Below, piece after piece: positions 1,480-9,981 of a stretch of 10,347 nucleotides of DNA (position 1 is the first letter of the stretch; each line of letters opens with the position of its first letter). A model generated the notes under the pieces. It had not been told where the DNA came from and ran no database searches. It saw nothing but the letters and a program-made list of their open reading frames with translations. The stretch lies in IMG/VR virus record IMGVR_UViG_2529293213_000037. One strand, written 5' to 3'. The position numbers and the translations under genes were made by a program. Source of the stretch: a virus (taxonomy: Duplodnaviria > Heunggongvirae > Uroviricota > Caudoviricetes).

Positions 1480-1632
1480 CTATTGTTGAACTGGATTAAA
1501 CCAGTAATTCTCTATTGCTCTTATTGTTACCATCGGATGATTGCCGGGGGTTATTTTAAGTTCGGGAGGAAAAGGCTCTCCATCAGCAGCCATCATTGAG
1601 TATGTGAAATCCGCCGACGCAGTCCCTTTCAT
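1480..1632 (-). CDS. Either a 50-aa translationally coupled small ORF or the C-terminal part of the frameshifted upstream gene
   Basis: ATG at 1632-1630 overlaps the upstream stop (ATGA). The same frame is open upstream back to about 1838 without an ATG, which suggests a fusion with 1629-2018 after a -1 shift. Product ...MKGTASADFTYSMMAADGEPFPPELKITPGNHPMVTIRAIENYWFNPVQQ. Confidence 0.35.
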   Translation of the reverse strand: MKGTASADFTYSMMAADGEPFPPELKITPGNHPMVTIRAIENYWFNPVQQ

Positions 1633-2018
1633 GATAATTCCGAATTTTTCAAGTAATGAGAGCAGTTCCGGTAATCCTGTGTCATCTGAATAACTTTCCT
1701 CATAGAAAGAAGCGATTGCCGCAGGAGATGACAGTTCTCGCTCTGCAATTTTTTTGTAGTTTTCCAGAATTCTTTTTTTGAATACTTTTCCTCGACATGA
1801 AAACCCATCACCGAGGCAATCCGCTTTGCAGTTTCTTCAGTATTCTGGTTGTTTGTTACCGAAACAGAGTACAATCCGGTAAACGCATCGCGCACATTAC
1901 GAGCCATATTATCAATGTATTTCTTCGTTGCAGATTCTAATTCAACTTCGTTCAGACGTTGGTGAAGTGCATGTGCTGCAATTTCCTGGATTTCTTTTAG
2001 TAAATCTTTAAATTCCAT
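1629..2018 (-). CDS. Hypothetical early-left operon protein at the ydfC position; annotated frame of 129 aa, but probably frameshifted at an A7 tract
   Basis: ATG at 2018 with GGAG 7 nt upstream. N-terminal part (MEFKDLLKEIQEIAAHALHQRLNEVELESATKKYIDNMARNVRDAFTGLYSV...) looks like real coding. After the A7 run (minus strand of 1773-1779) the annotated frame uses rare codons (AGG, CGG x2) while the -1 frame stays open to 1480 and reads more protein-like. Confidence 0.55.
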   Translation of the reverse strand: MEFKDLLKEIQEIAAHALHQRLNEVELESATKKYIDNMARNVRDAFTGLYSVSVTNNQNTEETAKRIASVMGFHVEEKYSKKEFWKTTKKLQSENCHLLRQSLLSMRKVIQMTQDYRNCSHYLKNSELS

Positions 2019-2592: not shown

Positions 2593-2880
2593 TCAGATAG
2601 AGAAGGGAAATTGTCGCCGAGAATGTGTCACGCTTACAATCTCAATGCTTGAAGCAGCTACTCTGTACAGGATTATGTAGTTAGGGTGGGTCACGATCTC
2701 TCTCAATCCAGAAACCCGTTCGCTTGGTGGATATAAGTACGGATGCTCAGATAGAGGTAATACCGATGTTTCAATGCGTATTTTTAGTCTACGTGCTGCC
2801 GGTGGGTTCTCCTTGGCGATGTAAGTTATGATCTGGCGCAAATCATCGCGAGCAGACGGTAGCCATAAAATGGGTAACAT
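2593..2880 (-). CDS. parE: ParE/RelE-superfamily toxin (95 aa), type II toxin-antitoxin system
   Basis: Product MLPILWLPSARDDLRQIITYIAKENPPAARRLKIRIETSVLPLSEHPYLYPPSERVSGLREIVTHPNYIILYRVAASSIEIVSVTHSRRQFP... has the ParE-family hallmarks. Its start overlaps the stop of the upstream antitoxin gene by 1 nt (TAATG). Confidence 0.8.
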   Translation of the reverse strand: MLPILWLPSARDDLRQIITYIAKENPPAARRLKIRIETSVLPLSEHPYLYPPSERVSGLREIVTHPNYIILYRVAASSIEIVSVTHSRRQFPFSI

Positions 2881-3071
2881 TACTCGCTCTTGTTAGTTAC
2901 AGCAATTTGAGCAATAAGATTTTCCATTTCAGCCATTACCTCGTCATGTGGAATTGCGGGGCGAGTGTCTGCAAGGCTTGACGTTACTTTAGTGCGCAAC
3001 CATTCGTTGTAACTGTTTTCTTGTTCGGTAGTTTCGAATTCTGAAACTATCGGAGAAAGGGCTGTACCCAT
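2880..3071 (-). CDS. paaA: Antitoxin (63 aa) of the three-component ParE system, PaaA-like
   Basis: Product MGTALSPIVSEFETTEQENSYNEWLRTKVTSSLADTRPAIPHDEVMAEMENLIAQIAVTNKSE. GAGGAG Shine-Dalgarno 7 nt upstream. Sits 27 nt after the repressor stop and is directly coupled to the ParE gene. Size and sequence resemble the PaaA2 antitoxin from memory. Confidence 0.7.
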   Translation of the reverse strand: MGTALSPIVSEFETTEQENSYNEWLRTKVTSSLADTRPAIPHDEVMAEMENLIAQIAVTNKSE

Positions 3072-9221: not shown

Positions 9222-9825
9222 GCGTTCTCCCCATGAGCATTAAAGGATGCTTAAGATATGCTATGTCACTGATAAAAAATTTGTTGTGTGTGTTTAGTTA
9301 TTTTATCTACCTCCATTATGATTTAAGACTGATATATGTTATCAGCAAAGGTACATCGTTATTATTTTACCTGTCAATACATTTGATATTGATTATCGTT
9401 TACATCGCTTGCTTAGGAAATTGAAGGCAGGTAACTATCATGTCAATGAACTAACCCACAGTCTAACGTACTTCTTTCCCCAATCACCAACAACCAAATT
9501 CCTGTTATCACCACTGGGATTTTGGCGCAACTTCATGGTGCAGAGGTAAATAGCATCAAGCAAAATCTCTTTTTCCGTTGTTGTCCTTATGGGACGTCTG
9601 TCTTTCTGACCGATTTCATATTGGCGAGGTAATGGGAAGTTAAGTAGAATAGCTGCGGGTGCTTGAGGCTATCTGCCTCGGGCATGAACACCAACGGCAG
9701 ATAGAGAAAAGCCCCAGTTAACATTACGCGTCCTGCAAGACGCCTAACATTAATCTGAGGCTCAATCTATGAACGGCAAATCTAGGTTAGCCTCTTACGT
9801 GCCGAAAGGCAAGGAGAAGCAGGCT

Positions 9826-9981
9826 ATGAAGCAGCAAAAGGCGATGTTAATCGCCCTGATCGTCATCTGTTTAACCGTCATAGTGACGGCACTGGTAACG
9901 AGGAAAGACCTCTGCGAGGTACGAGTCCGAACCGGCCAGACGGAGGTCGCTGTCTTCACAGCTTACGAACCTGAGGAGTAA
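9826..9981 (+). CDS. hokD: Hok/Gef-family type I toxin (51 aa), closest to HokD (RelF)
   Basis: Product MKQQKAMLIALIVICLTVIVTALVTRKDLCEVRVRTGQTEVAVFTAYEPEE, about one substitution from HokD as I recall it. AAGGAG upstream. The track ORF (from 9769) is an in-frame N-terminal extension. No relBE-like ORFs upstream. Confidence 0.8.
   Translation: MKQQKAMLIALIVICLTVIVTALVTRKDLCEVRVRTGQTEVAVFTAYEPEE

Follow-up and report, generated by a model that had tools for sequence, protein, structure and literature searches.

Why is the gene that lies between ydfB and dicF of this prophage spread over two reading frames, with runs of seven adenines in the region where the frames change? The stretch of DNA analysed here, hereafter called the window, comprises 10,347 nucleotides and is a segment of an E. 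coli lambdoid prophage of the O157:H7 type. Between positions 1300 and 2400, it matches NZ_AP018488.1 and hundreds of further EHEC chromosomes with 100% identity. An earlier note, made from the sequence alone, had described the gene at the ydfC position as frameshifted, with two A7 tracts, a -1 frame open to position 1480 and an ATGA overlap between a stop and a start codon. We re-checked all of its sequence statements on positions 1480-2018, and they hold.

On the minus strand, from high to low coordinates, the window encodes a DicA-like repressor, RelB/RelE, ydfA (DUF1391), ydfB, the gene in question, DicF, dicB and a DUF1482 gene (Table 1). The slot between ydfB and dicF is occupied by different cassettes in different prophages, as compared with the Qin prophage of K-12 (L012). 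The DNA homology to K-12 (90% identity) resumes from about position 1198 of the window, approximately 330 bp upstream of dicF, and continues through DicF. The RelE/RelB pair is missing from some loci that carry uninterrupted alleles of the gene (L005, L007, and L010).

Table 1. Positions of the gene, its reading frames and its neighbours in the window
Feature	Position	Strand	Remarks
RelE/ParE toxin (95 aa) and RelB antitoxin (63 aa)	2593-3071	minus	between the DicA-like repressor and ydfA
Truncated ORF	1629-2018	minus	129 aa; RefSeq WP_000394511.1, "hypothetical protein"; residues 1-90 authentic, residues 91-129 out-of-frame tail
N-terminal helical domain	1850-2018	minus	residues 1-55
First A tract	1773-1779	minus	TCA AAA AAA (Ser-Lys-Lys); in frame in intact homologues; not the lesion
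Second A tract, lesion site	1749-1755	minus	A7 here, A8 in intact 179/180-aa alleles
C-terminal coding remainder	1480-1749	minus	89 codons and TAG in the -1 frame; residues 91-179 of the intact protein
Out-of-frame tail	1629-1748	minus	39 codons (LQSENCHLL...NSELS) and TGA; without counterpart in intact homologues
Remnant ORF	1480-1632	minus	50 aa; start is an internal Met of the ancestral protein
Variant Met codon	1567-1569	minus	ATG, in ...NHP-M-VTIR...
Convergent Cys-rich ORF	1257-1442	plus	MPNKPCPACN...; stop TAA at 1440-1442
DicF sRNA	869-920	minus	Rfam 76.9 bits; same strand as the gene and downstream of it
sok antitoxin RNA	9657-9831	plus	Rfam 105.6 bits; near the other end of the window

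In both A7 tracts, the first A occupies the third codon position, which places the run in the A_AAA_AAA phase. The two tracts lie 24 nt apart and the -1 frame is open between them; this frame has no stop between a point some 20 codons upstream of the first tract and the TAG at 1480. Consequently, slippage at one or the other tract would lead back into the C-terminal frame, and a -1 slip at the first tract, owing to its A_AAA_AAA phase, would reach it just as one at the second tract does. The predicted trans-frame junction peptides are ...EFWKTTKKIAER... or ...YSKKRILENYKK..., and the zero-frame tail reads ...TTKKLQSENCHLLR. The ATG of the 50-aa remnant ORF (1632-1630) overlaps the TGA of the 129-aa ORF (1631-1629). 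The A7 runs themselves are not enriched, with eight observed in the window against 7.3 expected, which is no excess over chance. The feature that does exceed chance is the open -1 frame of about 110 codons, and homology accounts for it. The earlier note had also argued from codon usage. Its counts are right, since one AGG and two CGG codons occur in the zero-frame tail beyond the second tract and neither codon occurs in the -1 frame, but the argument carries little weight, because the -1 frame has rare codons of its own (CGA, AGA, and three ATA).

Which of the two frames represents the original gene? The alignment with homologues that the earlier note had proposed, in search of a single ORF of approximately 180 aa, provides the answer. 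The conceptual fusion of both frames matches proteins of E. coli and Salmonella that are encoded by single ORFs of 177-186 aa (P0001-P0009), with 61-91% identity and 100% coverage, which bears out the description of the gene as frameshifted. Intact single ORFs are found at the loci L002-L007, L009, and L010. Neither of the outcomes that the earlier note had named as refuting it was obtained: the homologues are not consistently split into two ORFs, and conservation does not follow the 129-aa frame.

The alignments also locate the break. The earlier note had assigned the shift to the first tract, but the intact proteins track the zero frame of the window through that tract, and follow the -1 frame only after the second one; at the join, they read ...EEKYSKKEFWKTTKK-IAERELSSPAAIASFYEE... 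(SKKEFWKTTKK-IAERE). The DNA alignment agrees on this position. At L002-L007, which are intact, the first tract is A7 (or GA6) and the second is A8; at the latter, the window has A7 within near-identical flanks. In the diverged clade of 186-aa proteins (L009), the position of the second tract is occupied by GCC AAA CGC ATC, which is in frame and contains no homopolymer. Moreover, the substitutions that separate the clades in the C-terminal part are distributed over the three codon positions as 24/17/42, a third-position excess in the -1 frame of the window, and the codon changes in the same frame comprise 27 synonymous and 31 non-synonymous ones. The alignments, the in-frame codons of L009, and the third-position excess together identify the single ORF as the ancestral state, and as one under selection. 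The gene proper encodes a protein of 179 aa and is interrupted at an A8 run: one clade gained this run, and the lineage of the window then lost a single A. As expected of a truncation allele, uninterrupted homologues span both halves of the gene, and the break is a length change in a mononucleotide run. A decayed pseudogene or truncated allele, one of the options listed in the earlier note, fits both the single-ORF homologues and the difference between A8 and A7.

The orphaned C-terminal frame contains no further stops or indels, and is nearly the same as in the intact alleles except for an Arg-to-Met change. At this nearly invariant position, the window haplotype encodes Met, where Arg or Lys stands in every other intact homologue. 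The rare A8 copies of the window haplotype (P0154 and P0158) share the Met codon, which may therefore predate the frameshift.

On these grounds, we propose that the window allele is very probably a fixed A8-to-A7 contraction, which is to say an ordinary inherited frameshift that truncates an early-operon gene of the prophage, rather than a programmed recoding site.

Could the A7 run nevertheless have been kept as a recoding signal? According to this alternative, -1 ribosomal frameshifting or transcriptional slippage would set the ratio of the 129-aa to the 179-aa protein, as in dnaX or IS3. Several features of the locus agree with it: both tracts are in the phase that the X_XXY_YYZ pattern demands, with the -1 frame open between and after them, the -1 frame encodes a real, selected domain, the A7 length is uniform in 384 complete genomes, and a GAGG sequence lies 10 nt 5′ of the first tract, and of that tract only. 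However, the GAGG represents conserved Glu-Glu codons, which occur in the intact, in-frame alleles as well. A recoding site needs the correct phase and the open -1 frame, but these two do not suffice to make one; here, it is the diverged homologues that decide. All of them are single ORFs, so the two-ORF layout is not conserved, and L009 lacks the homopolymer altogether. No significant downstream structure emerged either, as the RNA folds downstream of both tracts are no better than those of shuffled sequences (z between -0.94 and +0.07). A bare A_AAA_AAA yields only 0.405% of -1 frameshifting in E. coli (PMC4066793 Table S3) and is far less shift-prone than A_AAA_AAG (PMC5009743). [quoted passage not shown] In addition, the gene is absent from the conserved-motif prophage clusters of PMC4066793. 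We therefore regard a programmed -1 fusion of about 180 aa, which the earlier note had listed first, as quite unlikely.

Next, we examined how stable the length of the tract is. The census covered 5426 complete E. coli genomes and used queries of 81-83 nt that differ only in the tract length, such that a single indel pushes the identity under the 99% band, as validated locally. Shorter queries (45-48-mers with flanks of 18-21 nt) proved unsuitable in a local test, because the DUST filter of BLAST masks A7-A9. The window haplotype is present in 386 of the 5426 genomes, and the tract is exactly A7 in 384 of these 386, with neither A8 nor A6 in any. The weakest hit inspected, in strain E105, carries a substitution, with the 129-aa protein still encoded. 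The carriers include O157:H7, O121:H19, O103, O111:H11, and other E. coli, some of them isolated from pig, fish, or milk. Of the complete genomes, 387 contain the 3′ half of the gene, at 99% identity or more in 386 and at 94% in one; the latter is strain A19, which has an intact 179-aa frame that PGAP calls as 193 aa from an upstream start. The exact 129-aa protein is encoded on at least 1000 contigs.

This census bears on two explanations at once. If the A7 were an error of sequencing or assembly, the true genome would have A8; homopolymers are indeed error-prone on some platforms, and noisy assemblies of this gene exist. However, exactly A7 was obtained in 384 complete genomes that are independent of one another and were produced by many laboratories on many platforms, and the 129-aa protein is encoded on at least 1000 contigs. 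We consider this option of the earlier note to be refuted, with next to no chance of being correct.

The second explanation is a phase-variable contingency gene, in which switching among A6, A7, and A8 would turn the full-length protein on and off within populations; the earlier note had spoken of a slippage-prone on/off gene. Draft assemblies of the window haplotype do include A6, on one contig (L008), and A8, on one or two contigs (P0154 and P0158), which may be real or homopolymer errors. On another haplotype, L013 (Logan SRR9326098) is frameshifted at the first tract, which is A6 there. These variants are restricted to one or two contigs each, and several come from indel-ridden assemblies and may be errors: L014 (TA280) and L015 (GCA_949766905.1) contain many scattered homopolymer indels, which look like sequencing noise rather than biology. 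A run of 7-8 A is also short for a tract of this kind. The tract-length polymorphism expected of a phase-variable locus is found only on isolated draft contigs, and the uniformity of A7 in the complete genomes argues against switching, which we judge to be highly improbable.

A further possibility is that the gene has been split into two functional polypeptides, with the ribosomes restarting at the ATG 1630-1632 after the TGA 1629-1631, thereby producing a 50-aa C-terminal fragment. The overlapping stop and start codons (ATGA) suit such a restart, and the 50-aa ORF is intact and annotated as a gene of its own in some records (P0168, 659 contigs). However, in the ancestral protein this ATG encodes an internal Met, and it is the place at which the shifted frame happens to end that creates the overlap. 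There is no clear Shine-Dalgarno sequence before the ATG, the ancestral residues 91-129 would be absent from both products, and no free-standing 50-aa family or homologue was found besides such remnants. A split gene is accordingly very unlikely.

What does the truncated protein retain? AlphaFold2 predicts the N-terminal helices (residues 1-50) with pLDDT values of 72-83, and the C-terminal part with values below 50. The N-terminal helical domain (residues 1-55) is a shared module, which is joined to unrelated C-terminal parts in several proteins of 113-129 aa as well as in the "Ybl81" proteins described below, and it is the only part of the protein with relatives outside the immediate cluster. 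As this domain occurs naturally with several different C-terminal parts, the truncated protein may keep partial activity. An exhaustive HMMER search of 1.84 billion representatives returned 31 proteins; in this search, the C-terminal part was covered, beyond the 50% cluster of the query itself, only by the 50-aa remnant ORF P0194. The searches of Pfam, NCBIfam, and PADLOC gave no significant family, and those of PHROGs matched solely families of "unknown function". Among deposited phage genomes, a megablast search of the gene against 50,697 of them yielded no match, and tblastn detected only N-terminal relatives in Stx phages, at 31% identity. The close relatives of the gene are thus known only from prophages in bacterial genomes.

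Based on these results, we propose the following course of events for the contraction. The ancestral gene encoded about 179 aa, with a conserved helical domain at the N-terminus and a C-terminal part restricted to its lineage. Within one clade, the Lys-Lys-Ile codons then became an A8 homopolymer (ACA AAA AAA ATT), from which replication slippage probably dropped one A, leaving the A7 of the second tract. Ribosomes that pass this tract would translate 39 out-of-frame codons before stopping at 1629-1631, so that the predicted product of 129 aa keeps the N-terminal domain and lacks the C-terminal 89 residues, while the codons for the latter persist as the intact orphaned frame. The allele has since been inherited stably, and the prophage has carried it into O157:H7, O121:H19, O103, O111:H11, and other E. 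coli. Some full-length protein may still leak through, either by -1 slippage at one of the two tracts or by an extra A inserted by the RNA polymerase, but this should amount to well under 1-2% of the products and would be mere leakage, as opposed to a designed signal. The combined leak of both tracts is likely to be around 1% or less, and the full-length protein below about 1%.

The same haplotype carries another lesion nearby. In the convergent Cys-rich ORF, a TCA-to-TAA nonsense change shortens the product from 80 to 60 aa. L002, L005, and L007 have the TCA codon, and hence 20 additional codons, with which the ORF extends 20 nt into the 3′ end of the 179-aa gene. The presence of a nonsense lesion in the neighbouring gene of this haplotype suggests local decay.

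Several observations count against the reading as an ordinary truncation. The clean C-terminal frame fits a recent lesion, and it fits continued use too. The tandem in-phase heptamers, the open -1 frame, and the GAGG constitute the layout of a recoding site. Furthermore, the allele is common in several serotypes and is not obviously purged. It is also conceivable, if quite unlikely, that the A7 run is a retained, attenuated allele of the gene, because the full-length protein would harm the host when expressed from a derepressed dicB-type operon. In that case, the contraction would hold the full-length protein at approximately 0.5-1%, through -1 slippage at the tandem tracts or an A added by the RNA polymerase, and the prophage would retain a trace of the function while the lysogen survives. 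This arrangement would correspond, in bacteria, to the "savior indel plus low-level compensatory frameshifting" of the herpesvirus thymidine kinase (PMC5009743).

The chief value of the A8-to-A7 contraction lies in correcting annotation. In thousands of EHEC records, the 129-aa form and the 50-aa remnant are passed on as two "hypothetical proteins". The family phrog_1363 (139 positions) aligns with the frameshifted product of 129 aa along its whole length, even in the out-of-frame tail. The locus also offers a worked case of how a textbook-looking slippery heptamer can be separated from a programmed signal. It reveals no new mechanism, unless the reading as a leaky attenuated allele proves true.

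How does this gene compare with known systems? K-12 YdfC (Qin prophage, b1573; 72 aa) occupies the same operon slot, between ydfB and the dicF/dicB segment, but has no BLASTP match to the window gene at E<=10 and represents a different cassette. The prophage proteins called "Ybl81"/phrog_2151 (208-214 aa) share the first ~50-85 residues, with the helical MEFKDLP...NVRDAFTGLY domain, whereas their C-terminal part is entirely different; a literature search for "ybl81" gave no match. The -1 frameshifting of dnaX and the IS3 family resembles the window in its in-phase A_AAA_AAN heptamer and in a -1 frame that encodes a real domain. In the window, by contrast, the site is not conserved, no downstream hairpin or pseudoknot emerged from the RNA folds, the ancestor was a single ORF, and the heptamer ends in A instead of the far shiftier G. 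In the "pseudo-pseudogenes" (Baranov et al. 2005, PMC1088944), as here, one A inserted into the mRNA would restore the frame and intact homologues exist elsewhere. Those cases rest on runs of nine A or T, while the run in the window has 7 nt, at which slippage is expected to be rare. The homopolymer frameshift pseudogenes, or "authentic frameshift" alleles, in which a coding homopolymer has contracted or expanded, share the one-base change in an A run, the orphaned downstream frame, and the stable inheritance; the window gene is a further example of this well-known kind. It differs from them in that PGAP does not mark it as a pseudogene, the truncated form being the predominant one in the databases, and in that its N-terminal domain survives, which makes a partial function possible.
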